Source of the DNA: Fimbriimonadia bacterium
GTDB taxonomy: Bacteria > Armatimonadota > Fimbriimonadia > Fimbriimonadales > JABRVX01
DNA: 64,000 nucleotides
Direction: 5' to 3'
Assembly: GCA_041483895.1 (NCBI GenBank)
Contig: JBGPGO010000011.1
Location: 64,001-128,000 of the forward strand
Position 1 is the stretch's first letter. Every line of letters begins with the position of its first letter. Below, piece by piece: positions 31,039-62,103 of this stretch. Below the pieces are notes generated by a model. The model did not search any database. It worked only from the letters and a program-made list of their open reading frames with translations, and had not been told where the DNA came from. The position numbers and the translations under genes are program-made.

Positions 31039-31066
31039 GCTTTCATAAAGATCCTTTACCGATAGC
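31039..31066 (+). other. Degenerate copy of the 28-bp dif-like recombination site
   Basis: GCTTTCATAAA GATCCT TTACCGATAGC; 21/28 identical to the copy at 59282; intergenic under the 30981 start assignment. Confidence 0.55.
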
Positions 31067-31112
31067 AAAGGACCGGCCAATAACCGCTAATCTACGCACC
31101 CGATTCGCCGGC

Positions 31113-31655
31113 TCAGCGTATCTCCACAACGACCGATTGGGTATTCACCGTCCCTCGCCACTCTGCGTTCGATTGCGCTTTGCCGAGGGTGCTGTCATAG
31201 TGAACGCTTACGGAATACTTGCCCGCACGAAGACCGTCGAAATACCAGATGCCGCCAAAGCCATCGTCTCCCTGCAAACGCAATGCGCCGTTGGCCTCCA
31301 GAAGCGATGCAGAGAGGTGAACGACGTACGAGGCGTCTTTGGCCAGGAGCGGTGTTGTTGTCTTCCCGGGCCGAGTTCCGTTGCGGCCGCCGTCAATCCG
31401 TAGGTCTTTTCCGTCGGTGTCCTTGAGAACCATCCGTACCGTGTCGAAGAGCGAAAACGCCTGCGGCTTCGCATCCCGGTTGGTTATCGTGAGCCGCAGG
31501 TCTATCTTTGTCCGACCCCGGTTCTTTGGAGCGTGCCAAACACTATCGGCGGACACAACGAATTCGGCGCCTTGCGCGAGGATAGGCTTAGACGCCACAG
31601 CGCCCTTCATGGAATGCGGTGGCGGCGCGGACACCTGATAGCACCCGGCCGCCAC
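31113..31655 (-). CDS. Hypothetical exported protein, probable lipoprotein, Ig-like
   Basis: Beta-rich ORF with LRLTITN and LRAGKYSVSVHY; the in-frame upstream sequence supplies a hydrophobic stretch and lipobox VAAGC; true start unclear. Confidence 0.6.
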   Translation of the reverse strand: MAAGCYQVSAPPPHSMKGAVASKPILAQGAEFVVSADSVWHAPKNRGRTKIDLRLTITNRDAKPQAFSLFDTVRMVLKDTDGKDLRIDGGRNGTRPGKTTTPLLAKDASYVVHLSASLLEANGALRLQGDDGFGGIWYFDGLRAGKYSVSVHYDSTLGKAQSNAEWRGTVNTQSVVVEIR

Positions 31656-31690
31656 GCAAACAAGGCTGATCCAGATGAACCCGCAGCGTG

Positions 31691-32443
31691 CTACTTTCTC
31701 CTCCTGCGCAAACCCAATACGCCGATTGCGCCGACGGCTAGAGCGGCAAGTGAGCTAGGTTCGGGCACCGGAGTGCAATGATTCTCCCAGCCCCAGAAAA
31801 CTCCACCGTAGATTCTCGCCTGCTTGTTCCCGGTCTCGACCACTAAGTGCAGCTCAGCGTTCCAATAATGGTCCTTGCATCCGTCAGGCCGCTGCGAAAA
31901 GTCGTAGAAGCCGGTGCCGTTCGCAGCGAACCCGTCGTCATAGTACGGAGTCGTGGCTGTAGAGGCAACGTCTACGATATTCTCGACGACGCCGTGACCA
32001 CCGTTAATCGCGTGATTGTCGGTGACGACCTGGATCCAGTGAACTTTGGCCGTCGGATCGGCTCCATGCGCTGCGTACTCGAGGTCAATCTCCGCTCCGA
32101 CAAGTCCGGGCGATCCCACTACGTGGTACGTGTGCACAACCAAGCTATCGTCGGACAGTTCCGCGGCGGCGGATGTAAACTGCCATCCCGCGTAAGCGCC
32201 GGTCAGAACGTCGAAGAAATTGTTTGTGACGGCGCGCTGGTACGTGACTTTGCTCGGAACAAGGTTCGCCTCACAGTTCATGTCGGGGTTGGTACACTTG
32301 TACTTTTCTTGCGGTTTATAGTCGCCGTTGGTCGTGTACCCGAACACGGTGCGGACCTTATAGTCTTCCTTTACGATGCCCGCGTACGAAACCGAGCCGA
32401 TCGTGGCCAATAGCCACATCGAAGTAATTGCAATCTTTCGCAT
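31691..32443 (-). CDS. PEP-CTERM sorting domain protein
   Basis: Signal peptide; C-terminal VPEPSSLAALAVGAIGVLGLRRRRK. Confidence 0.92.
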   Translation of the reverse strand: MRKIAITSMWLLATIGSVSYAGIVKEDYKVRTVFGYTTNGDYKPQEKYKCTNPDMNCEANLVPSKVTYQRAVTNNFFDVLTGAYAGWQFTSAAAELSDDSLVVHTYHVVGSPGLVGAEIDLEYAAHGADPTAKVHWIQVVTDNHAINGGHGVVENIVDVASTATTPYYDDGFAANGTGFYDFSQRPDGCKDHYWNAELHLVVETGNKQARIYGGVFWGWENHCTPVPEPSSLAALAVGAIGVLGLRRRRK

Positions 32444-32849
32444 GTCTAATCCCCCTTCTCCTACAAGTTGGCCAGCCAGTGCAAACGCAAAGGAACCAAT
32501 TCATCGCCGAAGGTGGGGAGAAATACAACAAGCGCAGTCAACAAGAACCGGTGCGGTCTAAGGTCGCAACATAGTAACATTCTTTGGATCGTTTGTCAAG
32601 ATTTGGCTGGGCATTAAGCGCCCGCGGAAGTTCCTACCGGCGACGAACGGCAACAATATCCCCGAGTTCTATGGACTTCTAACCCCGCCCCGGCAACCCG
32701 TCAGCCAAGTAGCCGAACGCCCCTCTGTCGTACGGGTCTGAGCCACCGAATCGACCTGGAGCGTCTGATACTCAGGTTCCCAAGACTAGAATCATGATGC
32801 CCGTTGGACTGGACTTCTGCGTCCACCCCTGGTACATGTCGTGTTCGTT

Positions 32850-33324
32850 CGGGGAGCGGAGACGTGCAGTCCTGCGCGAGGCGACTTCGACCCGGAGGCG
32901 AAGACGCCGGCGGTTCGCGGGAAGGGGCAGGCGCTGATGACGCTCAGCGATAAGGCCATCGAGGTGATCGGCGACTACCTGGCCTGCCGAGATGACGACC
33001 GACCGGAACTGTTCCTCTCCTGCGCTGGCCGGCTTTCAGGCATCTCCGGCGTCGGGCTGGCGTTCATGGCAAGGCACTACGCAAGGAAGGCCGGTATTCA
33101 GAACTTCAGCCTCCACAAGTGGCGGCACACGAGCATCACCGCCTACCTGCACGCCACAAACGGCGACGTGCGGGCGCACAGAAGCCCGCCGCCATTCTAA
33201 GCTGGAGACGCTGATGATCTACTGATCCCTGGATGCGACCGGTCTCCTGACCGAGTCGCAATATGGTGACACATGGGAGGACTTACAGGGACGGGCGACG
33301 AAGCTATTGTCGGAACTGGCCTAG
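32850..33324 (+). pseudogene. Degraded tyrosine recombinase catalytic domain, paralog of 59990-60643
   Basis: High nucleotide similarity to ~60185-60643; HKWRHTSIT retained; in-frame deletions, a 1-nt frameshift near 33187 and a REP insertion at 33222. Confidence 0.88.
33222..33261 (+). repeat. Single REP-like copy inserted in the recombinase pseudogene
   Basis: CTGATCCCTGGATGCGACCGGTCTCCTGACCGAGTCGCAA, absent from the paralog and flanked by TA on both sides. Confidence 0.88.
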
Positions 33325-33529
33325 AGCCAGGTATTAAGAGATCAACCTCTGAGTAGATTCATCCCGGCTTGCAGGCTTCTCCCGACGGAGATGACATGGG
33401 CGAACAATCATCGTTTCCTTTACAATCCGCAATCGCGAACGAGGGCTCACGTATGTATTTCGTTCCGCGAGCTAAACTACGCACGTCCTTCGCCCCTCCG
33501 TGGCATAGAAACACCCCCGAAGTGGTCGG

Positions 33530-36130
33530 ATGCTAGCCGCTCTTATTATACTGTCGCTGCCGGCGTTCGACTTCATCAAGAGTGTCGAGGGCTGGCAGCC
33601 GTACCACGACGTGTCCCGGCTCTCGGGGACGCCCGAGGGAATGCTTATCGAGATCAGCGGCATGGACCCGTACGTGGGAGGCCCGCCGAGCGACTTCCCG
33701 GCTGGGCAAGCGCTGTGGGCAAAGCTGAGGCTCAAGTCCGATCAGGGCGGCGACGGACAGCTTTTCTGGTTTACCGACGCCAAGCCACCGAGCGAAGAGA
33801 CGTCCGTGCACTTTAGCGTGCCGAAGCCCGGCGAATGGTGCGACGTGCGGATGAAGTTGCCGGCGCTGGGGCCAGGTACGCGCATCCGGCTCGACCTTCC
33901 AGGAACCGGCGGCAAGTGCGTCTTTGCATCGCTTGTATTTGAGCCGCGCAACATGCCGATAGCGCCGAAGTGGCTGCCACTTCTTTCGCCGCAGTACACG
34001 GACCCGCAGCAAGCTGCGTCGGGAAGTCTCGCCCTCGTACACGACGGCGAGACCTTCGGCGGTTTTCACCTGCTGGTGGACGGCGAACTCATGGCGATCG
34101 GAAACGATCGGCCGATGATCGGATACCTCCACGGCGAGGAGACGCGGTGGTTGGACGTGGCCAAAGTCGCCAAACCGTCAACTTGGCTGGAAACAAATGG
34201 CGTTGTGGCCGACGCGAAGTTCACGGATTCGGATGGCGCGAATTGGCACATCACGCAGGTTTTCATCGAGGGTAAACCCGGCAGCTTCGATGTGGTCACA
34301 AGCGTCACGGTGGATCGAGATAGGGAGGTGGTCTTCCTTCCGATGCTGACACTGCTGCCGGGAGTTAACAGTTATGGAGCGAAGAAAGGCCACGCGTTGT
34401 TCGCCGGCCTCGAATATCTGGATGATGAGCCGAGCAGCTCCGAAGCGGACATCACCGGACCGGGCGCCAAGCGCCAGGTTCCGGATGCGGAGAAGATCAC
34501 GATCCCGCTGATGGCGGTTCAGGCCAATGGCCACTATATCGGCGTCATCTGGGACCAGAAGCCGGAGTTTGCGGCCGTTTTCGATTCGCCGGACCGGCTG
34601 TTCGGATACGGTGGGCACGTCATGTCCCTCGTGTTCCCGGCGGGGGTCGAACGCGAGCCCGGGTCACTCGTTCCGTACGACACCGCGCTTCTCGCAGCAA
34701 ACAAGCCGCTCGTCTTGAAAGCGACGATCATCGGCGGCAAGGGATCCAGCGTCGTTCCGGCGGTACGTCAGTACATTGCGCTGCGCGGCCTGCCCGTCGT
34801 GCCCAAGACCGGTTTGGACATGCAGGCCTACGTTCGGTTCGCGGCGGGTGGATGGCTAGATTCGCGTTTGCGCGAAGGCGACAAATATCGGCATGCCTAC
34901 TGGCCCGGCGCCACGAGCTTCGGCCCGGGGGCAGTGGCAGGAGTCGGCGTATGGGAGGAGTGGCTGGCGCGGCAGACGACCGATCCAGCATTGTCGAAAC
35001 GTCTCGACGAATCGGCAAGAGGCGCTGTCGCGCAAGTTCAGCCTGCCGACACCAACGCCTCGGACGTCTCGCATGTGCGCTATCCCGTCGCTTCTCTTCT
35101 TTATGGGCATGTCGAGGAGAACGCCGAGCGCGCGCTCGCCGCCGGTCGTGAGCTTGTAAAGCGCTTTGGACCGAACGGCTCGCTTCTCTACAAGCCCACC
35201 GGACCCGACTACGGCAAGACGCATTTCGCCAAGGACGCCAACGGACATACAGCCAGCGTCGTCCGCGCACTGCTCGAAGACGCCATCTTCTGCGGCGACG
35301 AGGCGCTGATTCGCGACGGCCTGCGACTGCTGCGTGCGATGGACAAGTTCGCAGACTCGGCCCCCCGCGGCGCGCAGACCTGGGAGGTGCCGCTTCACAC
35401 CCCTGACATCCTGGCGTCCGCCGAGCTTGTGCGCGCGTACACCATCGGCTATGAGCTGACCGGAGAATGGCAGATGCTCGATAGGGCGAAGTACTGGGCG
35501 TGGACCGGCGTGCCGTTCGTGTACCTGGTCAACCCGACTCCGGGCCCCGTCGGGCTTTACGCCACAATCCCCGTCTTCGGCGCGACCAACTGGACCTGGT
35601 CCTGGTTCGGCCTGCCCGTGCAGTGGTGCGGGCTGGTCTACTCGGACGCACTCTATCGGCTGGTCCGCCACGACCCTAGCGGCCCGTGGAAGCGGCTTGC
35701 CGACGGCATCACGGCTTCCGGCATTCAACAGAGTTTCCACGCGACCGACCACGACCTGCAGGGACTCCTACCCGATTCGTTCAACCTCCGCCCGCAGACG
35801 CGAAACGGCGTGGCCATCAACCCCGGGACCGTGGAGGCGAACGCCATTCGCCTGTTCGGCGGGCCGGAGCTATACGACTTCCGATCGCTGCGCAAAGCCG
35901 GGCTGCTCGTTCACGCCCCCGGGGAGATCGCGGGGATTCGCGACACCAAAGGCGCGGCGTCGTTTACGGTGAAGGGCTGGTCCAACCACCCATACTATAT
36001 CCTCATCTCCGGCCTGAAAAGGCAACCGACCGTGCGCTTGAACGGGCAGGCGGCCACTGACGCCGAGTTTGCGAACGGACGCCTAGTTGTGAAGGTCGAA
36101 GGCACCGCGAAGATCGCCATTGTCCTTTAG
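33530..36130 (+). CDS. Large secreted hypothetical protein, possibly carbohydrate-active
   Basis: Short N-terminal hydrophobic segment; CBM-like N-terminus (RIRLDLP); C-terminal helical region with PRGAQTWEVPLHTPDILAS and WFGLPVQWCGLVY; family not named. Confidence 0.75.
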   Translation: MLAALIILSLPAFDFIKSVEGWQPYHDVSRLSGTPEGMLIEISGMDPYVGGPPSDFPAGQALWAKLRLKSDQGGDGQLFWFTDAKPPSEETSVHFSVPKPGEWCDVRMKLPALGPGTRIRLDLPGTGGKCVFASLVFEPRNMPIAPKWLPLLSPQYTDPQQAASGSLALVHDGETFGGFHLLVDGELMAIGNDRPMIGYLHGEETRWLDVAKVAKPSTWLETNGVVADAKFTDSDGANWHITQVFIEGKPGSFDVVTSVTVDRDREVVFLPMLTLLPGVNSYGAKKGHALFAGLEYLDDEPSSSEADITGPGAKRQVPDAEKITIPLMAVQANGHYIGVIWDQKPEFAAVFDSPDRLFGYGGHVMSLVFPAGVEREPGSLVPYDTALLAANKPLVLKATIIGGKGSSVVPAVRQYIALRGLPVVPKTGLDMQAYVRFAAGGWLDSRLREGDKYRHAYWPGATSFGPGAVAGVGVWEEWLARQTTDPALSKRLDESARGAVAQVQPADTNASDVSHVRYPVASLLYGHVEENAERALAAGRELVKRFGPNGSLLYKPTGPDYGKTHFAKDANGHTASVVRALLEDAIFCGDEALIRDGLRLLRAMDKFADSAPRGAQTWEVPLHTPDILASAELVRAYTIGYELTGEWQMLDRAKYWAWTGVPFVYLVNPTPGPVGLYATIPVFGATNWTWSWFGLPVQWCGLVYSDALYRLVRHDPSGPWKRLADGITASGIQQSFHATDHDLQGLLPDSFNLRPQTRNGVAINPGTVEANAIRLFGGPELYDFRSLRKAGLLVHAPGEIAGIRDTKGAASFTVKGWSNHPYYILISGLKRQPTVRLNGQAATDAEFANGRLVVKVEGTAKIAIVL

Positions 36131-36273: not shown

Positions 36274-36301
36274 CCTATCGAAAATCGCCATTATCGGTAC
36301 C
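36274..36301 (+). other. 28-bp dif-like recombination site A
   Basis: CCTATCGAAAA TCGCCA TTATCGGTACC; intergenic. Confidence 0.75.
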
Positions 36302-36416
36302 AACACAACATGTACCAAGGGTCTGCTAGCAAATCCAGTCGTAGGAGAAAACGTCGGCGCCCGCGCCTGGAATTGCTACGGCATACAGTTTCAGAAGGCT
36401 ATGGTTCGGTGGCAGT

Positions 36417-37571
36417 TCACTTGCTCAAAGGGACCAGAATCGTAACAACGAAAAGTATGCCAGCCGCTAGAAGATAGGGCGACATGGGCAGCCAATCGAA
36501 CAACAGTCCGCCCAGAATTGGCCCGATCAAGAATCCCAATGAGCGGCTTGACTGAAGCATGCCGAACAATTCCCCCTGGCGATCAGGGGGTGTCAGATTG
36601 CTCGCAAGCCCGCTAATGATAGGATTGGCTCCACCCACTCCAACGCCATGTATCGAAGCAGCGAGCACAAGCATTTTCATGCCAGGCATAAAGGGCATCA
36701 TCGCTATTCCGCTGCCTTGGAGGAAATACGATGCGCGTAACGCGACGTGCTCGGAGCAATGACGCAAAACGAACGGCAAGAAGAATCCTTGAATGAGCAT
36801 TGCAACCGTCGCCTCTACCCCCAAGATGAAGCCGAATTCCAGTTGACCGTAACCAAATCTAAGATGAATCAATCGCCCAAACGTCCCTTCCAAACATGCT
36901 AGGGCGAACCAGCCAATGAGGGCGACGAGGAACAGTCGCATCAGTTCAGGATGACTTCTCAGGAACGAAACGCGATTCGGGGTTGAAGGAGGGCGGCTGT
37001 CCCCGATCGGAGCGACGGAAGGCAGTGCAACACCAAGCCAAAGCGCACCGATGAACGAAGCCGATGCGGCTACCAGACCGATCGCCATGTTGCCGCCGAC
37101 TTGGGCAAGCCAACCGCCGATTACCGGTCCCAAAATCAGTCCGGCGGTTACCGATGCGCCGATCCTGCCCAACCCAACCGTGCGCTCGCCACTCGCCGTC
37201 GCATCGGCAACATATGCTTGCGCCAGGACGACGTTCGCTCCGCCCAATCCAGCAAGAACCCTGGCAGCCAACAGCCAACTCATGTCGGTGGCAAATGCAT
37301 ACACGATCATTGATACCGCTGAGATGAGCGTACATACGACGAGAATTGGCTTTCGACCCACGCGGTCGCTCACACGACCCCAGCGCGGCGATGCGCCAAC
37401 TTGGACAAGAAAGTAACTGGACAATGCAGTTCCGATAAGCCACCCCGGTGCTCCGAAGCTCTCCGCTCGCAGTTGGAAGTCCGGGAACACCATCCCAAAT
37501 CCGATGAGGTCGAGAAAGACGGCAAGGAGCAGAGTAAACTCTGTACGGTTCGAATGATGTTGCTTGTTCAC
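36417..37571 (-). CDS. MFS transporter, TetA/DHA1-like
   Basis: VFLDLIGFG, motif A GRVSDRVGRKP, motif C GLILGPVIGG; multiple TM segments. Confidence 0.88.
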   Translation of the reverse strand: MNKQHHSNRTEFTLLLAVFLDLIGFGMVFPDFQLRAESFGAPGWLIGTALSSYFLVQVGASPRWGRVSDRVGRKPILVVCTLISAVSMIVYAFATDMSWLLAARVLAGLGGANVVLAQAYVADATASGERTVGLGRIGASVTAGLILGPVIGGWLAQVGGNMAIGLVAASASFIGALWLGVALPSVAPIGDSRPPSTPNRVSFLRSHPELMRLFLVALIGWFALACLEGTFGRLIHLRFGYGQLEFGFILGVEATVAMLIQGFFLPFVLRHCSEHVALRASYFLQGSGIAMMPFMPGMKMLVLAASIHGVGVGGANPIISGLASNLTPPDRQGELFGMLQSSRSLGFLIGPILGGLLFDWLPMSPYLLAAGILFVVTILVPLSK

Positions 37572-37703
37572 CTACTGAAGCCTTTGGAAGCGTCGGGCAT
37601 GCCGTGGCCCAGCGCAGTCGAATTCACGGAGCGAACCACGCTCTTGAATTGCCGATCAGAATGCGTTCGCCAGGATCGGTAACAAATGGGCACACCATAT
37701 GCG

Positions 37704-40700
37704 TCAAAGTTCTTCGGCCTTTACTGCGTCCTTTTCGAATCTTAAATAGAGTACTGGCAGTACGAATAGCGTGAGCAGTGTCGCCGAGATTATGCCGCCA
37801 ATTACGACCGTGGCGAGGGGTCGTTGCACCTCTGAACCGATGCCGGTGTTGAGCGCCATCGGGATGAAGCCAAGCGCCGCGACAAGCGCGGTCATGAGCA
37901 CTGGCCGCAGTCTCTGATTTGCCCCTTCGCGTACGGCGTCCGATACTTTCAGCCCACTCTCGCGTAACCGATTGATGGCAGAAACCATCACGACGCCGTT
38001 CAGTACCGCAACGCCCGAGAGAGCGATGAACCCGACACCAGCCGTGATGCTAAGTGGCATTCCACGAGCTGCCAACGCAAATACGCCACCTGTAACCGCC
38101 AATGGTACACCTGTAAAGATGAAGACGGCGTGCTTCACCGATCCAAACGTCGTGAATAGCAGAACGAAAATTAGCGCGAGAGCGATCGGAACCACAAGAG
38201 CCAATCGCGCCGACGCCTTTTGGAGATTCTCAAACTGTCCGCCCCACGCCAAATAGTAATCTTCCGGTAACGACACCTTCGACTTTATGGCGCCTCGTGC
38301 AGCTTGGACGAAGGAGCCTAGATCGCGCCCTCGCACGTTGAGTTGAACCACTACTCTGCGCTTGCCGTTCTCCCGGCTGATCTGGGCTGGCGCATGCACC
38401 GTCGCTATCCGTGCAACGGTGGAAAGCGGTACGCCGGCACCGGAAGGAGATCTCACCTGCAGCGCCTTGATGGCTTCCACATCGTTGCGAACATCCTCCG
38501 GTAGCCTAATCGTCAGCGCGAACCTCTTGTCACCCTGGACGATCTGCCCCACAGGTTCGCCACCAAGAGCAACGGCGACCATGTCTTGGATGTCATCCAC
38601 GTTCAAGCCGAGCCGCGAAATGGCATCCCGATCTATCTCGATTTGCAGGACCGGCACTTCATCGACCTGCTCGACCTCGACGTCTTCGGCGCCGGGAATT
38701 GCCCGCACGACGTCGGCAATTTCGTCTGCCTTTGACTTCAGTGTTCTCAGGTCCTCACCGAACACCTTGATGCCAATGTCCGCCTTTACTCCGGAAATGA
38801 GCTCCGAAAAACGCATCTGGATCGGCTGCGTGTAACCATAGCCCTGCCCCCGCACAACAGACACTCTTGAATCGATTTCTTCAATCAGTTTCGCCTTCGT
38901 CATCCCCGATCGCCACATGCGCGTCGGTCTGAGCATCACAAAGCTGTCCGTCAGACTGAGGGGCATGGCGTCAAAGGCGATTTCTGGCGTTCCGCTTTTT
39001 GAAAAAACCATCGCAACCTCGGGTAACTTGAGGATCTCCTTCTCCATCGCGGTCACGAGCTTCACGGTCTCTTCGGCATCGACTGTCCTCAGTCTGACCG
39101 GCTGGACTAAGATCGAACCTTCGTCGAGTTGCGGAATGAACTCCGATCCGAGTTTGCCGAACTGCAGGAACGCCGCACCGAGCAGAAGAGCCGCGCCTCC
39201 AAGCACCACTGCGCGGCGATGCATTGCGAATCCTAGCGTCCGGCGATAAGCGCGGCTTAGGAACTCCATCAAAACGTTCCGTCCTTCGCGCGTGTTGCCG
39301 GAAAGGACCATGCTGGCAAGCGCCGGGACAACTGTCATCGTAAGAATGAGAGCGCCTACGAGAGCAAATACGACGGTGAAAGCCATCGGCTTGAACATCT
39401 TGCCTTCGGTGCCTTGTAGAGCCAAGATAGGGAGGTACACGACCGTAATAATTGCAACGGCAAACGCAGTCGGCTTAGCAACTTCGCGCGAGGACTCCCA
39501 GACCGAATGGCGAACCTCTTGGCGGGATAAGGCGCGGCCCAAGCGCTCCCGAGCTTCCGCCAAACGTCGAACAGCATTCTCAATCATTACGACCGCGCCG
39601 TCAACGATCAGTCCAAAGTCGATAGCCCCGAGGCTCATCAGATTGCCAGAAATGCCGAATTGGTTCATGCCGACGACGGCGCACATCATAGACAGAGGGA
39701 TTGCCAGAGCAACAATGAGGGCGCCGCGCAAGTTGCCAAGGAGCAAGAGCAGAATTGCAATGACGAGAATTCCGCCTTCAAAAAGGTTACGTTCGACTGT
39801 TGCGATTGTCGCATTCACTAGTTCCGAACGGTTATAGGTCGTTGTTACAGTGACGTCTTTGGGAAGCTGCTCCTTGATGTCTCGAAGCTTGGCATCCACG
39901 GCATCAGCGACAGTTCGACCGTTCGCTCCCTTCAGCATCATGACCACGACGATAAGTGTTTCTTTGCCGTCTTTGCTGCTTACTCCAGTCAGAACCGGCG
40001 TCCCAAACTTAACTCCGGCAACGTCGCGAATGAGGACGGGGACCCCTCCCTCGCTCCTAACAACAATGCGCTCGACATCGCTCTCATTTCGAGCCAGACC
40101 GACACTGCGGACGAACGTACGCTCTCCGCCTTTGTCAATCACACCACCGCCGGCGTTCCGATTGTTCCTCTCAAGCGCGGAGGCGATCTCGCTGACCCCG
40201 ATTCCACGCGCTTGCAAGGATTGTGGGTTCACTACGACCTGAAACTCCTTAACACTGCCGTCCGCGGAACTCACATCGGCGACGCCGGGGACGGTTCGTA
40301 GCTGAGGCGCGATGAGCCAGTCTTGGAGGCTCCGGAGCTCCATCGCGTTGCGCTTATCACTTTCGACCGAATACATGTAAATATCGCCAAGGCCAGTCGA
40401 GACCGGGCCAAGTTGAGGAACGTTCACGTCGGGAGGCAATTGTGACTTGACGCTACCGAGTCGTTCATTCACCAGTTGTCTCGCGAAATATGTATCGACA
40501 TCGTCGCGAAAGGTGACCGTAACCTGCGATAGACCGTATTGGCTCTGGCTTCGCACGCCCTCGACACCCGCGATGCCGGCCATCGCCGTCTCAATGGGGA
40601 ACGTGACGAGGCGCTCGACCTCCTCAGGACCCAGCCCTCCCGTCTGCGCGTTGACCTGGACCTGATTGGTAGTAATATCGGGCACTGCGTCCAAGTTGAG

Positions 40701-40799: not shown

Positions 40800-40845
40800 A
40801 TCGTTTGACCTCCCTTGGGTGGGCGAGGGATTGATGTCGCACGTT

Positions 40846-41100
40846 TCATATGTGGCTGACCCAATCTTCGTTGGCTGACCGGTCCTTGCCGATCGCCCGT
40901 AAACGGTATCGATTCAACGCGACACCTGCCCACACCAATTCAACCACACCAAATGGCCAGGCCCCTTGCAAAAAACCATAGGTCGCGGCTAGCAGGCATG
41001 AGACGGCGAATCCGAGGACGAACCACGTAGCCCGGGCCTCCATCGCATAGCAAATTACCATTGCCGTGCAGGCAAACAGACCGAATGCAGTGAGTAGCAT
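40846..41100 (-). CDS. Small membrane protein (about 3 TM)
   Basis: Hydrophobic 84-aa ORF with YGFLQGAWPFGVVELVW; starts 3 nt after the MFP stop. Confidence 0.75.
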   Translation of the reverse strand: MLLTAFGLFACTAMVICYAMEARATWFVLGFAVSCLLAATYGFLQGAWPFGVVELVWAGVALNRYRLRAIGKDRSANEDWVSHI

Positions 41101-41102
41101 CG

Positions 41103-43831: not shown

Positions 43832-43835
43832 ATGA

Positions 43836-43963
43836 CTGCTCCTCCGTTTCGTTAGCTTTGGCCTAGAACGTCAGGCGGGTCAAAACCGAGCGGCTCTAGG
43901 CGAACATCAAACGATGGGAGCGAACAGGAGGGGCACGGGATAATTGCGTTCCCGGAGGAGCAG
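43836..43963 (-). promoter_or_regulatory. SD-sequestering RNA structure (translational attenuator) for czcC
   Basis: mRNA CUGCUCCUCCG (43963-43953) is an exact 11-nt complement of CGGAGGAGCAG (43846-43836), which contains the czcC SD; nested GCCUAGA/UCUAGGC stem spans the leader stop. Confidence 0.7.
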
Positions 43964-50356: not shown

Positions 50357-50357
50357 G

Positions 50358-51113: not shown

Positions 51114-51289
51114 TCGCACGAACCTAGATCGGCTTGAAAAAGCCTGGCCTGTCCATTGAAGATTCAAACACGATGACTACGACCAGAACAACCCGCCGCC
51201 TCAGTGGTACAGTTTCTCTCCGCCGTTTACAGCTCCAGTGCCTTTCGGCAGGTAGTGGCTTACATCACCATTGGAGGAGGCACTAATGA

Positions 51290-54200: not shown

Positions 54201-57200
54201 TAGGCGACCAGGTTATTTGCGATAGTATCATTCGTTCCATAGTTCGTGATTGCAAAAACGTAGGGGTATCCGATTTGTGCGGCACCGTGATTGCTGATTA
54301 GAGTATTGTTCGTAACGGAACAGGTTGTTGCTTGGTACAACCCAATGGCTCCGGACCCTTCGTAGTTGCCGATCAGTACATTGTTCGCGACTTGGCCATT
54401 GGTTGTCACATCGAGAAGTACCGTGTAGCCGTTCGCGGAGCTATTCCAAGCGAATATATTACCGCTAATTCGTGGTGTTCCACGCAGACTCGACAACGCA
54501 CTCGCGGGAAGAGATTGTGTTGTGCTTGTATTATGCGCTACCACGTTTCTTGCAAACAAGACGGTCGAACTGCCTAAGTCGACGCCTGCGACGGCTATGG
54601 TTGAGTTGTTATATGATATCGTATTGTTTTGAATCGTTCCGCCGGCCTTGTCCAAATATGCCAATCCGGTGCCCTGATTCCGGGAGATAAGATTTGAATC
54701 GATCAGACCAGCTCTAAACTTCGCTGTGACGCCTGGTATGGAATTATCAATAATCTTGCAGGAGATCAGCCTGCTCGCTGCTCCCTGCATAACGACAGCA
54801 GTCCCAGTCTTGATTTGACTTGTACATTCCCGGACTACGCAATTGGCGATCTCATTGCTAGAGTAAAGTGCATAGATACCCGCACCAGGAAAGACTCCTG
54901 CATTTCCACGCTTAATCGTAAATCCGTCAAGCACAGAGAGATGCTCCCCGGCCGCGACATTGACCGCCGTGCCACGACCTTCGGCATCGATGATTGTTGG
55001 ATTGGTCTCAAAATTCCGTTCCGAGCGATCCGATTCCGACCCTGCGAATCCTCCGTACAGCGCAACAAAGACCGGTAATCGGATCATCTCGGGGTACGTG
55101 CCCTTCATCACCCAGGCCTCACCACCGAGATCTGTCGCGAGATCTAGGCCAGCTTGGATTGTCTTCTTGGCGGTTTCCCACGTCAACCCGTCATGAGAGT
55201 CATCTCCGTCAGGTCGAACATGGATGATGGCAGGATTCGTGTTCCATAGCGTGCCGTCACTTTCGTCCGCTCCAATATCCACAGCCGGCCCAAGTATGCG
55301 AGATTGCCCATCATAGTCGCCATAACCCGGCATCGCGTCGGAGTTATTTCCTGCGTCAACGCAAGGGGATGTCGGCTGCAGATGAAAATTGCCGAACGGC
55401 AAACTTGCAATCAGTGGCTCTGCTGCAATGTTGCCATCGGTTCCGGTTGGATCGGTAACGCCGGACCAGTTCGCTCCACTATTTCCAAATACGTCATTTG
55501 AGTGAAATGTCGATGCTGGAGCGCTTCCTGAGGCCAGCACGCCACCGCCGCCATTGAATGCCACAACATTGTTCGAAAAAAGAGCGGTCGATTGACGATA
55601 GTGAATTCCACCAGCTCCAGTCGTTGCCGTGTTTCCGGCTATGGTATTTCCGACGATGATTCCTCCGGAAACACTGCTCAAATATAGCCCGCCGCCACCA
55701 TCCGATCCATTTCCGACAATCCAGTTGTTCGCAATTGTGGCCGGTCCCCCAACATAGACACCGCCGCCATTGAGCGCGGAATTGCCGCGGATCAGATTCT
55801 GAACAATTGTGGGTGCGGAAAGCCCGGTGACTTCGATACCGCCGCCTTCGCCCGGCTTTGCCGGGTTGACATTGTTCGACAGAATATTTCGCGCTATCAC
55901 AGGCGAGGCCATATTGCAGATTATTCCGGATCCTGAGCACCATTCAATCGCACAGTTCTGAATGGTGGGGGATCCAGAACGGCAATAGATTCCACCGCCT
56001 GTCCCATTGCGCACTCGGAGTCCGTCCATGACTCCACTTACCGCAATGACCTCAATGCTCAATCCCGCGAACGATCCGTCAATGATAGTGGGATTCGCCT
56101 TCCAATCGCGATCATTACGATCGACTTCGTTCCCCTTGAATCCCCCATAGATTGAGAAGATGTCCCGGAGAACTAGATTCTCCTTAAAGGTGCCACCGGC
56201 GATCCAAATCTCCCCATCTCTCTCGGAAGCTTCCATAAGAGCAGAGCCGATGGTTCTCTTCGCCGTTGCCCAGCTAAGTCCGTCGTCCAGGTCGTTGCCA
56301 TCAGGTTTGACAAATGTTACAGCCGGTCCGCCGTGCCAATTTGTGCCATCGGACTCGTCGGCGCCGATATCAGGGCCCAAACCCTGAATCCGCAACTGCC
56401 CGTCCATATCGACCCAGCCGCCATCAACGAATGCCGGCGCACCGGCGTCAACGCAAGGGGAGGCAGCCTGTAAGTGGTAGTCTTGATTCTGCCAATTGGC
56501 AAACTGGGGATCTGCGGAAATGTTGCCGTTCGTGCCAGTCGGATTGGGCATTCCCGCGAAATTGGTATACCCGTTCTGCCATACATCATTATTTGAAAAG
56601 ATCGGAGCGATTCCGCCCTCCACCAATTCGATGCCGGTCGTGTTGTGTGCGATCACGTTGTTGGCTATTGTTGCTTGCGCGCCGGCAAACGCCAGTCCCG
56701 CCCCATTTGTCGCAATATTGCCTACGATGGTATTGTTGACAACTTTCGTGCCAGCCAAAGTGGAGCTCAGAGCGATGCCGGGCTTATTTGCGAATACCAG
56801 ATTGTTTGCAATTTGGGCAACGGCATCGCCGCCGATCACAACGCCGCCGCCCGGATCTCTGCCAAAGTTGCGAGCGATCACGTTGTTGAGTATCGAGCTG
56901 GCGCCACCATTGCAGATCACTCCCATGCCGTTATCGGCTATCCGATTGCGCAGAATCGTTGCGATTACGTCTTCACCAACCGTAACGCCGCCATACTTGC
57001 AGTTCGTAATAAGATTATCCTCAATCACAACATGCGAGTTTCCATCGCAGCTGAGTCCGACGGCGTCTACACTGATATCGCTTCTACCGTTGATCGTGTT
57101 GTTTTGGAGCACAGCCGAACAGGATTCAAGCATTACTTCAACCGATGGGTTACCTTCGAAGTGGCAATTGGTGACCGTTGGGCTCCCCAGATTTCCATGC

Positions 57201-58912
57201 AGGCAACCATACTGCCAGCTGTTGCCGGACGAAACTATGGTACAGCCATTGATCGTGGCGGCAGTCATCAGCGCATTGATCGCTCCGCGATCGTTGTACT
57301 TCATTGGTCGCACATCGAACCCATCGATTACATCTTCACTCCCGCTCGGATCGATGTTCAATGTGCCTTCAGCGATGATGCAGACATGATTCTTGGGGTC
57401 CCTATCGACGCGATTGGATTCCGTTCCGGCAAATCCGGCATATAAGTGCGTAAAGCAGCGTGCGGTTACTGTTTCCGAATACTGTCCTTCGGCGACCCAG
57501 ACTTCGCCAAAGTTTGACAATGCCAATTCGATTCCGGCCTGAATCGTCTTCTTCGCGCTGGCCCAGCTGGAACCATCGTTGGTATCGGCGCCCGCCGGCG
57601 AAACAAAAACGACTGTTGGCTCAGTCGGCCAAACGATTCCATCCGATTCGTCTGCACCGATGTCCACATGGCTTCCGAAAATGCGCGACTGGCCGTCCAT
57701 ATCCTGCCATGAAAGATCGACAGAAGAGTCATCTCCGGTATCAACGCATGAAGACGCAGGCTGGAGGTGCAAGTTGCCGTAAGCCTCGAGCGCAAATCCC
57801 GGATCGACTGAGATGTTGCCGTTGGTTCCCGTCGGATCACCGAGACCTGAATAGTTGTATAGAAAGTTCCCAAATACGTCGTTCGTGAAAAACTTGGCGG
57901 ACTTGGATTTGTAGTCGACTCCGGCAGAATTGTATGCTATGACATTATTTGCGATGGTTGCAGAATTTGTTCCAATATTGATAACACCGCCGGTTGCCGA
58001 GTAGTTGCTGACAATCGTATTATTTACAATTTTTGCATTCGATCCCAGGCCATTAATGATCGCCCCACCCGAAAACGCTCCGTTACCAATCATGATGTTG
58101 TTGGCGATTACGAGTGCGGCGCTGCCACCGTATTCGATTGCAGCGCCGGAATCCGCGATGTTCGATTGAAAGTAGTTCGCGAGGATCATGGCTGCCGAGG
58201 TGTTGGAATAGATGACACCACCTTTCGTCGCATATAATCGATTGCCTGTCGAACAGAAACGATTGTGGACGATCATGGCGGTTGTATTAAGAAGGTAAAT
58301 GCACCCGCCGAGGTTTTCGGCAAAATTAAAGCAGAACGAATTGTCCTTGATCGTAGGAGATCCGCCAGAAATGTAAATGCCACCTCCATTGGTTGCCGAT
58401 GCTCCGATCGCGTTGGCGACTACGACGGCTGCTGAGTTCATGAGCGATATGCCGCCTCCGTTTCCGTGTACGACATTGTTGGAGATTGTCGGAGAGGCGT
58501 TCGAACACAAGATGCCAGGACTGCCCGCCGTGGAAAGAGACATCCCATCAATAACCGTGTCTAGGCCGGCGCCGGTTGCAACAGTAATACAACTACCGGA
58601 CGAGGGCTTGATACGAGAAGTATTAACGCTAGGATTCCTTTCGGACCGAATCAGTTCTGTGCCCGCGAATCCACCGTATATCGAAACCCCTCCAGTGAGC
58701 GAGACCTTTTCGGAATAGTCTCCGGAGGCCACCCAAATCTCGTCGCCGGTATGGGCTGCAGAGACGGCCCCTATGATCGTCTTCTTGGCAAGGCTCCACG
58801 ACGAACCATCATTCGCGTCACTCCCGGTCGGAATGACGCGGACGATCATTGCGTTCATTGAGTTGGCAATCAGCAAAAGGACTGATATCGCAATCCAAAC
58901 ACGGATGTTCAT
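51290..58912 (-). CDS. Giant secreted protein: six DUF1565 + right-handed beta-helix + choice-of-anchor-Q-like modules, C-terminal dockerin-like domain
   Basis: Six G.D..DG..W..AK.T[IV] starts and six SxC[VI]DxG...DIGA[DS]E-type ends; C-terminal GDAERNNVVNIRDL / DLDGGGSVDMHDL duplicated Ca-binding loops; signal peptide. Confidence 0.88.
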   Translation of the reverse strand: MNIRVWIAISVLLLIANSMNAMIVRVIPTGSDANDGSSWSLAKKTIIGAVSAAHTGDEIWVASGDYSEKVSLTGGVSIYGGFAGTELIRSERNPSVNTSRIKPSSGSCITVATGAGLDTVIDGMSLSTAGSPGILCSNASPTISNNVVHGNGGGISLMNSAAVVVANAIGASATNGGGIYISGGSPTIKDNSFCFNFAENLGGCIYLLNTTAMIVHNRFCSTGNRLYATKGGVIYSNTSAAMILANYFQSNIADSGAAIEYGGSAALVIANNIMIGNGAFSGGAIINGLGSNAKIVNNTIVSNYSATGGVINIGTNSATIANNVIAYNSAGVDYKSKSAKFFTNDVFGNFLYNYSGLGDPTGTNGNISVDPGFALEAYGNLHLQPASSCVDTGDDSSVDLSWQDMDGQSRIFGSHVDIGADESDGIVWPTEPTVVFVSPAGADTNDGSSWASAKKTIQAGIELALSNFGEVWVAEGQYSETVTARCFTHLYAGFAGTESNRVDRDPKNHVCIIAEGTLNIDPSGSEDVIDGFDVRPMKYNDRGAINALMTAATINGCTIVSSGNSWQYGCLHGNLGSPTVTNCHFEGNPSVEVMLESCSAVLQNNTINGRSDISVDAVGLSCDGNSHVVIEDNLITNCKYGGVTVGEDVIATILRNRIADNGMGVICNGGASSILNNVIARNFGRDPGGGVVIGGDAVAQIANNLVFANKPGIALSSTLAGTKVVNNTIVGNIATNGAGLAFAGAQATIANNVIAHNTTGIELVEGGIAPIFSNNDVWQNGYTNFAGMPNPTGTNGNISADPQFANWQNQDYHLQAASPCVDAGAPAFVDGGWVDMDGQLRIQGLGPDIGADESDGTNWHGGPAVTFVKPDGNDLDDGLSWATAKRTIGSALMEASERDGEIWIAGGTFKENLVLRDIFSIYGGFKGNEVDRNDRDWKANPTIIDGSFAGLSIEVIAVSGVMDGLRVRNGTGGGIYCRSGSPTIQNCAIEWCSGSGIICNMASPVIARNILSNNVNPAKPGEGGGIEVTGLSAPTIVQNLIRGNSALNGGGVYVGGPATIANNWIVGNGSDGGGGLYLSSVSGGIIVGNTIAGNTATTGAGGIHYRQSTALFSNNVVAFNGGGGVLASGSAPASTFHSNDVFGNSGANWSGVTDPTGTDGNIAAEPLIASLPFGNFHLQPTSPCVDAGNNSDAMPGYGDYDGQSRILGPAVDIGADESDGTLWNTNPAIIHVRPDGDDSHDGLTWETAKKTIQAGLDLATDLGGEAWVMKGTYPEMIRLPVFVALYGGFAGSESDRSERNFETNPTIIDAEGRGTAVNVAAGEHLSVLDGFTIKRGNAGVFPGAGIYALYSSNEIANCVVRECTSQIKTGTAVVMQGAASRLISCKIIDNSIPGVTAKFRAGLIDSNLISRNQGTGLAYLDKAGGTIQNNTISYNNSTIAVAGVDLGSSTVLFARNVVAHNTSTTQSLPASALSSLRGTPRISGNIFAWNSSANGYTVLLDVTTNGQVANNVLIGNYEGSGAIGLYQATTCSVTNNTLISNHGAAQIGYPYVFAITNYGTNDTIANNLVAYNSGGIYAYSAGTYANNNVYANATNYSGTADPTGTSGNISVDPIIPGIWVGDYHLGHGSPCIDAGNNSYVFPGFADIDNENRISGAAVDIGADEWYEDHTVTLPSAVVRVDGGNGNDLNDGLSWASAKKTVQGGIDALPDGGEVWIRGGIYQEHPIASGLISIYGGFAGNESDRSKRDWVANPTTIDGGRSGQVLSLVNGVGYLDGFTIRNGVTGGLLIQNSIETMVNLVISDNKGARGCGLNVNDSLIRISYSAITNNSDVDGANGFNYGPNQLISTSGTFDHVVVQGNTSQGGSLGAVGAGISFVNGGYLICTNCKLVDNVADSGPAIYCVPGAGLTLINSVASGNRARAGGGALYLSGNATLIGNTIVLNSAPRGAVAFSGTNLTMANNLISHNASGVYLDKVALLDFHNNDVFDNGWANLSGFASDPIGVDGNISEDPLIANRYTKDVHIQPGSPCIDGGSDVDSSGSDIDDEVRLLGAHVDIGADESDGTVWVGPSPSKTIYVKPLGSDAADGLRWQTAKRTVAAALAISAPGDEVWVTAGTYKENLTLPSSVKLYGGFLGTEWELEDRFLSSQNQSILDGAGGSTKSIIDVSPGALPDTVIDGFTITKGSRQGVGAGINVSGASPTISRNVFVSNGGIPVYLYSSGSKVSSLYFINNGSVGLYSRLSNIAVHDSLFYGNRGGASFSVCHGEFINCTVAKNPWTYGLVLSSSPLFLANNVIAFNNQGVQDSNSIPPANWWNSVIYGNGTKDYDPSIKSPVGKNGNVSVDPLFIDIANGDYHLSAASTCIDTGLDDATVPPRWDVDLLPRTIGHHVDVGASEYVSTTATGIILLNDFVGIPPDRIRFELRELGSRAAFGDFDAVIRPNGEFAIPVPAAALDLAAKPGHWLRRVVPIDATNGSVSGIEITLENGDAERNNVVNIRDLNAIFLSFGEGPSPNDLDGGGSVDMHDLTIVVMNFGMAGDD

Positions 58913-59281: not shown

Positions 59282-59309
59282 CCTATCGTAAAGAACCATT
59301 ATCGATAGG
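59282..59309 (+). other. 28-bp dif-like recombination site D
   Basis: CCTATCGTAAA GAACCA TTATCGATAGG, followed by TCTTGGGATTGCTGCGAAGCTGGCGTCCTGG shared with site C. Confidence 0.8.
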
Positions 59310-59445: not shown

Positions 59446-59850
59446 CTAGGCCAAGGTGGCGAAGATTAGTCGCTCGTGCCCAACAATGTGGCCGTCCACG
59501 AGAACGTCGAACCGATACCGGCCGGGCCCTTCAATAATGGTCGGTTCACCGAGACCAAAGGGGAGCTTCACCCATTGGCGACCCTCGAAAGCGTCGACGG
59601 GTGGATGCAGGTCCACATCGAGCGTCGCCGTCATGAGGCGGCTGCCGTCTTGGTTTATGAGGACAACGTCAACCTTAGCGGTCCGACCGCTTTCGCTCGG
59701 TTCATATTCAATCTCGGAAGCGAATGTCATAGGAGGCAATGGGCAAGGATATCGGCTCGGCGTGACCCGATCGAATAGGCCAACCAATGCCACGTTGCCG
59801 TTGGGCGATACTGATTCGTTTTCGCAGAGCTTACATAGTGTTGTTTTCAT
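59446..59850 (-). CDS. DUF6941-like protein
   Basis: LCENESVSPNGNVALVGLFD...YP...GPGRYRFDVLVDG pattern. Confidence 0.65.
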   Translation of the reverse strand: MKTTLCKLCENESVSPNGNVALVGLFDRVTPSRYPCPLPPMTFASEIEYEPSESGRTAKVDVVLINQDGSRLMTATLDVDLHPPVDAFEGRQWVKLPFGLGEPTIIEGPGRYRFDVLVDGHIVGHERLIFATLA

Positions 59851-59989: not shown

Positions 59990-60643
59990 ATGGAGTGGCC
60001 GGAAACCGGGCGCCAGGTCCAGCTCAGGGCGAACAGGACGGGCTTCCCGGACACGAAGCACGACGATCAGGTGCATAGCTTAGGCGTGGCCTTTCGGACG
60101 GCAATGCATTATACTGACGGCACCACCACCGTCAAGGGCAAGCGCGACGCGGCGATCCTTCGGCTGTTCTGGGAGCTGGCGCTGCGGCGTGCCGAGATCT
60201 GCAATCTTTCGCGGGCCGACTTTGACCCCGAGGCGAAGACATTGGCGGTTCGCGGAAAGGGTAAGGGGACGCAGAAGGTGCTGATGACCCTGAGCGATAA
60301 GGCCATCGAAGCGATCGGCGATTACTTGGCCTGCCGGGACATCGACCGACCGGAACTATTCCTCTCTTGCACACGCGACGGCGATGGCCAGCTGTCCGGC
60401 ATCACCGGGGTTGGGCTGGCGTTTATGGTGAAGCACTACGCGAAAAAGGCGGGAATCTCAAATTTCAGTCCGCACAAGTGGCGGCACACGAGCATCACCG
60501 CCTACCTGCACGCCACAAACGGCGACGTACGGGGCGCTCAGAAGCTCAGCCGCCATTCTAAGCTAGAGACGCTGATGATCTACGACGACGCGCGTGAGGA
60601 CCTTCAGGGACGCGCAACAAGGTTGTTGTCGGATTTGGCTTGA
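59990..60643 (+). pseudogene. Tyrosine recombinase catalytic domain lacking its core-binding domain, fused to a terminase-like remnant
   Basis: RDAAIL, LRRAE, GKG, HKWRH, SRH and catalytic Y (LMIYDD) are intact; only ~45 aa precede box I, and they contain FPDTKHDDQVHSL. Confidence 0.8.
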
Positions 60644-60651: not shown

Positions 60652-61077
60652 TCACGAGCGCTTGGATTTCAGCCGGTCAGGATTGAATCCCAGTTTGCGC
60701 ACTACCGTTTGCCTGCTTTTCTCTGCTCTCGCGGTCAGTTCTCGGCGTCGTTCCCGAACGTAGTCCTTCACAATCGTATAGCCGCCTTCGAAGCCGTATT
60801 CGTCGCATAGGAGTTGATAGATCCCGACGGCGGTGCAACCACTTCCGAAAACACCCTGGGCTTCTGCTTCGAGGATCTGATCGACAATTGGCGCTACGGC
60901 ATCCAGCTTCGATTCTCTCGTCGCTTGATCCTGCCGATATCCTGGTGGACGCTCGTACGTCAGCATCTTGCGGACAGTGTCTCTGTGCAAGCCAAACTCC
61001 CGCGCTACCTCCCGAATGCTGAGGACCTTCTTGTTGATCGCCCTTTTGACGTCCTTGTAGACATCAGCCGCGTACAT
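60652..61077 (-). CDS. Stand-alone IstA N-terminal HTH region (truncated IS21 transposase derivative)
   Basis: SIREVAREFGLHRDTVRKML...PPGYR...GFEGGYTIVKDYVRERR followed by an unrelated basic tail and a stop; no DDE domain. Confidence 0.75.
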   Translation of the reverse strand: MYAADVYKDVKRAINKKVLSIREVAREFGLHRDTVRKMLTYERPPGYRQDQATRESKLDAVAPIVDQILEAEAQGVFGSGCTAVGIYQLLCDEYGFEGGYTIVKDYVRERRRELTARAEKSRQTVVRKLGFNPDRLKSKRS

Positions 61078-61097
61078 GCGCCCTCTCGGTTTCGACG

Positions 61098-61119
61098 CTC
61101 ATGGCGGCATTTTACCGGC
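61098..61119 (+). repeat. 22-bp direct repeat, copy 1 (copy 2 at 62041-62062)
   Basis: CTCATGGCGGCATTTTACCGGC vs CTCATAGCGGCATTTTACTGGC, 20/22 identical. Confidence 0.7.
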
Positions 61120-61171
61120 TGTAAACACGGGAGAAAAATGCAGCCACGGGCGGGGAGCAAGAGTGTGCCAC
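61120..61171 (+). mobile_element. Orphan IS21-type terminal repeat
   Basis: TGTAAACACGGGAGAAAAATGCAGCCAC...GGAGCAAGAGTGTGCCAC resembles the end and sub-terminal repeat of the IS at 48729. Confidence 0.6.
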
Positions 61172-61255
61172 TTATCGGCGAGTTGATCGGGCCAAACTCA
61201 ACCAGGGCCGAGAGTGCAGAGGTAACATCCATACTTCCATCAGAGGAGGGAGTTA

Positions 61256-62047
61256 TTGGGTGCGATGCAAATGATCCCATGCAAGAGATTCCGAGCAAGT
61301 ATGTGGAAGCGAACAAGAGAAGTTTCGGACGAGTTCATTTATACCGTCCGACTAACCATGATGCATACGGCGCTCGGCGTTTTCATCGACCGTGCCAAGC
61401 AGGACGACGATCCCAACAAGTGGGAAGCTCAGGATATGCCCGAAAAGCTCGATCTGTTCGCCCGTCAGATGCATCTCTACGGCGAGATAATCAATCAACT
61501 TTTCGGCGATACCGCTCCACGTAGAGGAGCTTGGCCTCACGAAGTAGCAGATGCCAAGTTCCGCATCTGGGCTAAGGTTATCGCAGACGCCAACCTGCAA
61601 CTCAGTCAAGCCCGTAAGGAATTGCTCGAGGGAAAGGATGCTGCGTGGGATATAGTAAAGGCTGTTCGCAACCAACTGGGCGCGCATTTCGACATCGAAG
61701 TCATCCGTAGCGGGCTTGATCGCTGGCAAGAGCAACCACCTGACCAAAAGGCACACGCTTTCTACACGGGCCTGACTGAGGGCGACGACGCCGATCACAT
61801 CTTTCCCTTATCGCAGGAAATCATCGGATCTTTCCTCTGCGGTCTGGGTACGGAAGACCAATATTTTGACCGCATGGACAAGCTAATTCCTCCTCTACAC
61901 AACTACTTGAAAATGCTGATCGCCGACCGGATCATGGCACTTCAGAAAAGCGGAGAACTGGAGTTGATTGAAGGTGAAATGCACGCTGACATAGGTCTAT
62001 GGCACCCGGACCACTACAAACGAATGATTCGCGATATGACCTCATAG
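61256..62047 (+). CDS. Hypothetical helical protein with a HEPN-like (AbiU2-type) RNxxxAHxD motif
   Basis: AGGAGG RBS with TTG start; helical-looking sequence with KAVRNQLGAHFD. Confidence 0.6.
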   Translation: MGAMQMIPCKRFRASMWKRTREVSDEFIYTVRLTMMHTALGVFIDRAKQDDDPNKWEAQDMPEKLDLFARQMHLYGEIINQLFGDTAPRRGAWPHEVADAKFRIWAKVIADANLQLSQARKELLEGKDAAWDIVKAVRNQLGAHFDIEVIRSGLDRWQEQPPDQKAHAFYTGLTEGDDADHIFPLSQEIIGSFLCGLGTEDQYFDRMDKLIPPLHNYLKMLIADRIMALQKSGELELIEGEMHADIGLWHPDHYKRMIRDMTS

Positions 62048-62075
62048 CGGCATTTTACTGGCCAACCGCCATTGA

Positions 62076-62103
62076 CCTATCGAAAATCGCCATTATCGAT
62101 AGT
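62076..62103 (+). other. 28-bp dif-like recombination site E
   Basis: CCTATCGAAAA TCGCCA TTATCGATAGT; same spacer and ATTnA left flank as site A. Confidence 0.8.

Follow-up and report, generated by a model that had tools for sequence, protein, structure and literature searches.

Which enzyme acts on the 28-bp sequences that divide part of the chromosome of a Fimbriimonadia bacterium from sediment into gene modules, and how did this array arise? The 64,000-nucleotide stretch analysed here (the window; positions 64001–128000 of contig C11, genome G000) contains six such sequences, each consisting of two 11-bp arms around a 6-bp spacer, and every one in the same orientation. We propose that the islands themselves encode the enzyme, a Xer-like tyrosine recombinase that acts at these sequences in place of host XerC and XerD, and that co-integration, deletion and inversion by this enzyme of the element produced the array. 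To this reading we assign a probability of about two in three.

Sites in the window

The six sites, with their spacers and common orientation, had been described in the original prediction, and our controls confirm them. Five sites (36274, 44523, 48235, 59282 and 62076) match the consensus with 0–3 mismatches, and each of 100 shuffles gave 0 consensus matches. The degenerate site 0 at 31039 reaches 25.7 bits in a genome-wide position matrix from whose training it was left out. A seventh site, F (C11:133049), lies outside, about 5 kb past the window end, and is co-oriented with the six. Site F, the site-0 spacer GATCCT, a deleted inverted site, an element backbone with its tRNA anchor and the invariant spacer bases CC(A), all treated below, go beyond the original prediction. 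The window sites are as follows.

31039..31066, + strand: site 0, spacer GAT-CCT, degenerate; leftmost site found
36274..36301, + strand: site A, spacer TCG-CCA; hybrid
44523..44550, + strand: site B, spacer GAA-CCA; perfect consensus
48235..48262, + strand: site C, spacer CAA-CCA; right flank R2, a backbone end
59282..59309, + strand: site D, spacer GAA-CCA; right flank R2, a backbone end
62076..62103, + strand: site E, spacer TCG-CCA; convergent genes on either side

The right flanks of sites C and D have 30 of 31 bp in common; the shared flank had been predicted, as identity over all 31 bp. Flank R2 of site C is also 81–82% alike to the flank of site F over 400–500 bp. Two further ideas were rejected. 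The A/E and B/D pairs do not form attL/attR classes, as their flanks correspond to background (the ATTnA motif claimed left of A and E is found in 7/20 in the nearest bin). A strict cargo orientation was not found either, since cargo genes point both ways relative to the sites.

Sites in the whole genome

A genome-wide matrix scan had been named in the original prediction as a check of the array. The matrix, trained on 26 sites, found 27 positions of at least 25 bits and 28 of at least 18 bits; three column-shuffled matrices gave 0 matches of at least 20 bits. The 28 sites form eight clusters on six contigs. Seven clusters are located at most 18 kb downstream of a tRNA 3′ end, compared with 1.3 upon random placement (p ~5e-5, with a distance threshold that was picked after the distances were seen). 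Beyond the eight clusters, half or decayed sites occur at C12:64962, C9:80612 and C34:228.

Spacer positions 4–5 are CC in 28/28 sites and position 6 is A in 25, three of the 28 having been oriented by the spacer itself; positions 1–3 occur in nine forms. Neighbouring sites are directly oriented in 17 of 20 cases, and in two sites both arms are of the conserved type. A crude longest-ORF caller (ORF, open reading frame) flagged five of the 28 within ORFs, several of which are by inspection over-long starts or antisense frames. The modules between sites extend up to 11 kb and are multi-gene or have their own promoters, with gaps before starts of up to 370 bp; the single-gene module at C2:54749–56725 fits tightly between its sites. 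Other site-bounded cargo (L005:5969–14513, L006:4695–12361, L009:8121–11087) comprises a complete kdp potassium-uptake operon and type I restriction-modification genes.

A viral collection contained 0 matches to the site and 0 to a recombinase homolog, and a metagenome scan for the site revealed one exact match. The 8.4-kb metagenome contig L071 is satellite-like, with a recombinase end (102–749; family assigned by eye) and helix-turn-helix and replication-like ORFs. At L071:7154–7181, 6.4 kb downstream of the recombinase end, it has a site (CCG-CCA) nearly identical to those of G000.

A recombinase family linked to the sites

G000 encodes three intact copies of a Xer-like recombinase (C4:150749–151696 and two on C7, one of them at C7:66568–67515), which are ~90% identical, and five fragments, two of which (relics 1 and 2) are in the window. 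The full-length copies that the original prediction had hoped for thus lie outside it. The catalytic residue set of tyrosine recombinases, R-K-H-R-H/W-Y (PMC5357621), is present in full in relic 2 and in the one intact C7 copy that was checked. No NCBIfam model reached its cut-off: the XerS model scored 58.5 bits against 267, and TIGR02249 (IntI) 23 bits against 265. In a 36-row tree, the recombinase clade is set apart from host XerC/XerD (support 98/95; 26–29% identity) and from two phage-type integrases. Among named homologs, the closest belongs to a Fimbriimonadia bacterium, which makes this class probable for the host as well.

A GGG-CCA site directly precedes the start codon in all four recombinase copies that have a 5′ end, and beyond this site lies a conserved promoter-like flank, R1. 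The recombinase genes are bracketed by inverted sites. One truncated copy, on C1, is adjoined by SIR2-SAVED and SMODS genes (L002:15982–18695), which resemble a cyclic-oligonucleotide-based anti-phage signalling system.

Are the sites simply operator boxes of a DNA-binding regulator, with no role in recombination? The site upstream of the recombinase does have the position of an autorepression operator, with the promoter-like flank on one side and the ribosome-binding site on the other. However, 8 of the 28 sites lie between convergent genes, so that the dispersal at promoters which would have spoken for a regulator box was not found; the sites are clustered in islands, half of the spacer is invariant, and flank homology breaks at the sites. 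We regard an operator function as extremely unlikely.

The suggested kinship with cyanobacterial enzymes holds, as homologs are present on cyanobacterial plasmids: 120 plasmid records contain one, and those listed are cyanobacterial. A ‘Cyan’ subgroup of recombinases has been named (PMC8138268). Among 44 loci of distant homologs, 25 have a consensus site; in 24 of these there is a single one, immediately upstream of the recombinase gene. Of five cyanobacterial genomes, four gave one site match, and the other a weak second match. In the cyanobacterial loci L028–L056, several of them plasmids, a conserved 11-6-11 site occurs just upstream of the recombinase, one per locus, and is probably an undescribed plasmid resolution site. 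Of 400 other genomes of the phylum, 44 encode a homolog. An upstream site is clear in 8 of 23 loci, six of which were followed by the genome-wide searches given below, with no clear one in 15. In one phylum family (L072, L076, L080, L081, L084), the recombinase stands behind a conserved neighbour gene, has no clear upstream site and is possibly domesticated. The single-match counts in relatives indicate that one gene with one site is the usual state, as expected of a plasmid-type resolvase.

Two genomes of the same family and another genus, G001 (recombinase homolog 71%) and G002, have a site at the equivalent place, with altered arms and NNN-CCA spacers. Because the arms have changed, the G000 site pattern gave 0 matches in both.

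Host dif, XerC and XerD

The host genome has separate XerC- and XerD-like genes and a candidate dif (C16:36687–36714), which is single-copy and unlike the array sites. This agrees with the original prediction of a single-recombinase system with Xer geometry that is distinct from dif. The dif candidate, with variable spacers, was found once each in 23 of the 41 genomes of the order that were searched, G000 included (one row, G036, is unpublished, and the statement holds without it); its pattern was not found in family f2. Prediction of dif has failed in cyanobacteria (PMC3025954). The matrix scan revealed no array site on the dif contig C16, and thus no integration at the host dif as in integrative mobile elements exploiting Xer (IMEX). 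In G001 and G002, dif differs from that of G000 in 1 of 24 bases. Judged from these sequences, the site arms co-diverge with the recombinase while dif stays put, and the array sites follow the element recombinase, not the host dif.

An arrangement of true dif modules, run by host XerC/XerD and with the linked recombinase being incidental, would account for the 11-6-11 structure, for one conserved and one variable arm, and for the variable half-spacer beside the variable arm, all of which resemble published pdif tables (PMC13141974). Also, the inner CGATAA is common to sites and host dif. Yet the array sites lack the host XerD arm TTATGTTAA, their arms vary with the element recombinase whereas dif is constant, and orientation is mostly direct instead of alternating. 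The two sites with the same arm type on both sides fit one enzyme better than a XerC/XerD pair. We consider control by the host enzymes very unlikely.

Traces of recombination at the sites

In five pairs of sites sharing the right flank, identity drops from 13–19/20 right of the site to 3–5/20 left of it, with three further pairs as controls. In site A, the left arm and spacer match those of site E, and the right flank is the R1 of GGG sites. Flank R1 is joined to GGG four times, to TCG twice (one decayed) and to TGT once (decayed). On C7, the end of tRNA-Asn is duplicated over 45 bp; the copy stands in inverted orientation between two sites whose spacers are reverse complements of each other. 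The break in flank homology at the sites, the hybrid nature of site A and the attachment (att) repeat inverted between inverted sites show that recombination has taken place there; as far as can be read from present-day sequence, past shuffling is visible. For pdif modules, identical or almost identical spacers are regarded as a requirement for recombination. The spacers in the C7 inversion are identical, and the origin of site A implies 4/6 shared spacer bases.

A TCG site follows five of the six recombinase 3′ ends that have a downstream site (7/28 overall; the nominal p of 0.001 is overstated as the recombinase copies are related), which suggests that the triplet moves together with the module to its left. 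As relic 1 is preceded by an orphan R1, an inverted site must have been deleted there, so the uniform orientation in the window is partly secondary. The gene of one single-gene module (C2:54777–56724) is 83% identical, promoter included, to C1:439694–441549, a site-free setting; this is consistent with capture, and the transfer may have gone in either direction.

Four sediment metagenomes (4 of 22 listed runs, those with small word shares being set aside) were compared with window positions 30001–50000, a range that covers sites 0 and A to C, using contigs only at a depth of ~5. The arrangement was unchanged, and the listed contigs span sites 0, A and B.

Inverted sites around the recombinase genes, one inversion footprint on C7, and the R1 promoter flank joined to other half-sites could point to an invertible switch or shufflon, in which flipped segments, including the recombinase promoter, change expression. 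The array itself does not have this form: all seven island sites are direct, crossovers fall between genes with no variable gene ends, and none of the joints listed for the metagenomes on 30001–50000 is a strand-changing joint at a site. A switch is therefore highly unlikely.

Backbone, cargo and other features of the island

To the right of site F follow a 226-residue ORF (C11:133162–133839), a ParB-methylase, a DUF3854 protein, which we take to be a primase, a phage-type integrase and tRNA-Arg (C11:142348). G001 has a corresponding order of tRNA-His, an integrase (58% identical), ParB-methylase, 226-residue homolog and then a site with its conserved arm towards the backbone. In G002, the 226-residue homolog has the equivalent position at the site. 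A backbone-end ORF beside the conserved arm is thus present in G000 (twice on C11; on C4 via DUF6941), G001 and G002, and related backbone pieces on C4 and C7 terminate at sites. The other end of the backbone is a tRNA att, not a site. A search of 228 genomes of the class located the 226-residue ORF in only 3; an atlas search with it gave only unnamed matches, <0.9. The remaining features of the island in the window are listed here.

31113..32443, − strand: cargo, 180-residue ORF and PEP-CTERM protein
32804..32845, + strand: orphan R1 recombinase promoter-like flank, 81% over 43 bp to the intact C4 copy
32856..33323, + strand: recombinase relic 1, 3′ half only, with deletions, frameshift and repeat insertion
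33530..36130, + strand: cargo, 866-residue probably secreted protein, no Pfam family
36302..36343, − strand: R1 promoter-like flank adjoining site A and directed back into the end of the 866-residue gene
36417..44330, − strand: cargo, MFS transporter, CusA/CzcA-type RND efflux operon and upstream ORF
44559..48143, − strand: cargo, single TPR-CHAT gene, its end 9 bp from site B
48350..48730, − strand: truncated 226-residue backbone-end ORF, cut by IS21; 80% to C11:133162–133839
48729..51231, + strand: IS21-family element (istA, istB) with 41-bp perfect inverted repeats; later insertion
51290..58912, − strand: cargo, 2540-residue beta-helix protein
59446..59850, − strand: DUF6941 gene; on C4, its paralog (63%) stands last in the backbone before the site
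59990..60643, + strand: recombinase relic 2, lacking the first ~135 residues; all five motifs of the catalytic domain present
60652..61077, − strand: IS21 transposase N-terminal relic
61256..62047, + strand: cargo, 263-residue ORF, family unconfirmed
62104..64000, − strand: start of the next module, which continues to site F (C11:133049), followed by backbone and tRNA-Arg (C11:142348)

Since the truncated 226-residue ORF follows site C and the DUF6941 gene follows site D, the island holds three backbone ends (C, D and F). After the orphan R1, the normally following site and the 5′ half of the gene are deleted. The window is not a clean integron-like array, as three backbone ends are stacked in it and one inverted site is lost. 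The original prediction had assigned coherent cargo to each interval. The partitioning is real, but the C–D interval also contains the IS21 element and the truncated backbone ORF, and D–E the IS21 relic; neither Pfam nor NCBIfam supported the label ‘HEPN-like’ for one gene.

The three backbone ends and the two relics of the recombinase within one island, clusters adjoining tRNAs, and the unit of one gene and one site elsewhere would also be expected if related elements had piled up passively at a tRNA by means of the phage-type integrase, with resolvase sites serving dimer resolution only and being left over after backbone decay. Against such stacking, no repeated tRNA-Arg att copies (at least 12 bp, within 90 kb) were found. 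Moreover, single-gene modules fit tightly (the CHAT gene beside site B; C2:54749–56725), and the hybrid sites and the C7 inversion require recombination at the sites. Passive stacking is unlikely.

A short palindromic repeat (33232–33260) lies inside relic 1, and its 20-bp core occurs 73 times in the genome, similar to repetitive extragenic palindromes. In the IS21 element, istA is seemingly split into two overlapping ORFs (48831–49199 and 49196–50356). In the left part of the window, fucosidases, further glycoside hydrolases and a sugar ABC transporter are clustered (153–19046), followed by an operon for a 1019-residue multi-domain cytochrome c, cytochrome b, a Rieske protein and a flavin/Fe-S oxidoreductase (19051–25882). 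Elsewhere in the genome, a shared sequence is found behind three tRNA genes (Lys, Glu, Glu; C2:61026–61082, C2:258836–258875, C4:170197–170253). Its C4 copy overlaps the end of a serine recombinase region, and the shared sequence suggests a second integrase family at these tRNA islands.

Proposed mechanism

A unit of gene and upstream site, derived from a plasmid-type dimer resolvase, would have been taken up by tRNA-targeting integrative elements that consist of integrase, primase, ParB-methylase, small ORFs and then the site; in G000 the site would have multiplied. One enzyme would bind both arms. In such a reaction, the bases beside each cut must pair. All spacers share CC(A) beside the conserved arm, so that, with the strand order assumed here, a first strand exchange would be possible for every pair of sites. 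The second exchange would depend on the variable triplet, which probably biases partner choice, or a mismatch is tolerated or resolved by replication. In Xer recombination one strand pair is exchanged per subunit and the junction of some IMEX is resolved by replication (PMC9226527). A mismatch beside the XerC arm is tolerated in pdif sites (PMC13141974), and co-integration is favoured by xrs sites (bioRxiv 10.1101/2024.04.09.588662). Circles with one site, either cargo modules or whole elements, would co-integrate at resident sites, and segments between sites would be deleted or inverted. The island would then be the accumulated product, with seven direct sites, four modules of cargo only or mostly cargo, three backbone ends and two dead recombinases, and would be served, if at all, in trans by the three intact copies.

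Several observations weigh against recombination by the element's own enzyme. Neither of the recombinase copies in the window is intact. The host dif left arm has the same inner CGATAA as the site arms, so that host XerC could contribute. Between each recombinase copy and its TCG site, the cargo gene differs every time, with no intervening site. Large arrays were seen in G000 only, as G001 has three sites and G002 two, and in each of six other phylum genomes searched genome-wide a single site is convincing. The C11 island is not closed by any att repeat of tRNA-Arg (at least 12 bp) found within 90 kb, and synteny at tRNA-Arg is lost in G001 and G002, which belong to another genus and are too diverged for an empty-site comparison. 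None of the eight joints listed for the metagenomes, which also have 185 loose ends, falls at a site, in data whose low depth and restriction to contigs make them uninformative on rare circles. Finally, the scheme would have to postulate capture of new genes and a first acquisition of sites by cargo.

Even so, we think that this is probably a dif-module-like system with its own recombinase that runs without host machinery. A stronger version would see an active, self-contained cassette platform, derived by repurposing a plasmid resolvase and independent of integrons and host Xer, in which the shared 3-bp half-spacer permits any site to react with any other; this is conceivable but doubtful. 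We are equally hesitant about its corollary that single modules, including captured host genes with their promoters, move into and out of tRNA islands as one-site circles.

Comparison with known systems

Our literature searches, with supplements and most subscription papers outside their scope, revealed no account of the 28-bp site or of the system. One-site (cyanobacterial plasmids), two-to-three-site (G001, G002) and 28-site (G000) states occur naturally and may be used for studying how such modularity arose. The set of NNN-CC(A) spacers makes it testable how much spacer identity Xer-type recombination needs. The analysis also matches a widespread family of cyanobacterial plasmid recombinases with its cognate site, and recombinase–site pairs with differing arms could serve as orthogonal tools.

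Integrons consist of IntI, attI and attC, with a co-oriented array of unrelated cargo and a crossover region of which a short part is invariant. The G000 array is similar in its co-oriented sites with unrelated cargo and in that only a short part of the crossover is invariant. In contrast to integrons, it has no IntI (see the TIGR02249 score) and its sites are of the double-stranded Xer type. Integron cassettes are promoterless, uniformly oriented single genes, whereas here modules have their own promoters, genes are of mixed orientation and recombinase copies are inside the arrays. Of the integron-like capture or tandem accretion originally predicted, both contribute (cargo-only modules and three stacked backbone ends, respectively), while strict likeness to integrons has to be given up, given the missing IntI, the multi-gene or own-promoter modules and the mixed orientation.

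As in a plasmid resolvase module, the gene adjoins its site, and the cyanobacterial plasmid homologs are exactly so arranged, with one site each. Unlike such a module, with one gene and one site per replicon, the G000 chromosome has 28 sites and eight gene copies or fragments. XerS/difSL and XerH/difH likewise combine one recombinase with an adjacent, imperfectly symmetric site; they resolve chromosome dimers at one locus (PMC5357621), whereas this host keeps XerC, XerD and a separate dif. Pipolins share integration at tRNA genes, a phage-type integrase together with a XerC-like recombinase, and variable cargo, but an internal site array does not appear in the parts of the pipolin descriptions available to us (PMC7385651, PMC11551731). 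Nor does the array share the primer-independent PolB (piPolB) of pipolins as far as the scan reaches: no PolB family was among the best matches shown for 176 ORFs of the window and the clusters, a subset of all ORFs there.

The closest counterpart are the dif modules of Acinetobacter (pdif/xrs sites; Rep_3/OrfX plasmids), where 28-bp 11-6-11 sites separate accessory modules and a conserved backbone is bounded by a site (PMC13141974), and which include chromosomal dif module islands (PMC12907356). Variable spacers are common to both, and so, probably, are tolerance of mismatches beside the variable arm and co-integration, deletion and inversion (PMC13141974; bioRxiv 10.1101/2024.04.09.588662). 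The differences are that the G000 sites are no copy of the host dif, that the recombinase is element-encoded and apparently single, that neighbouring sites are mostly direct (17/20) and do not alternate between C/D and D/C, and that the backbone is a tRNA-integrating element, not a Rep_3 plasmid, with modules of up to 11 kb. PMC13141974 describes the dif module system as one that occurs in Acinetobacter alone and that depends on host XerC/XerD. The array in G000 suggests that the same modular logic arose separately from the resolvase of a mobile element.

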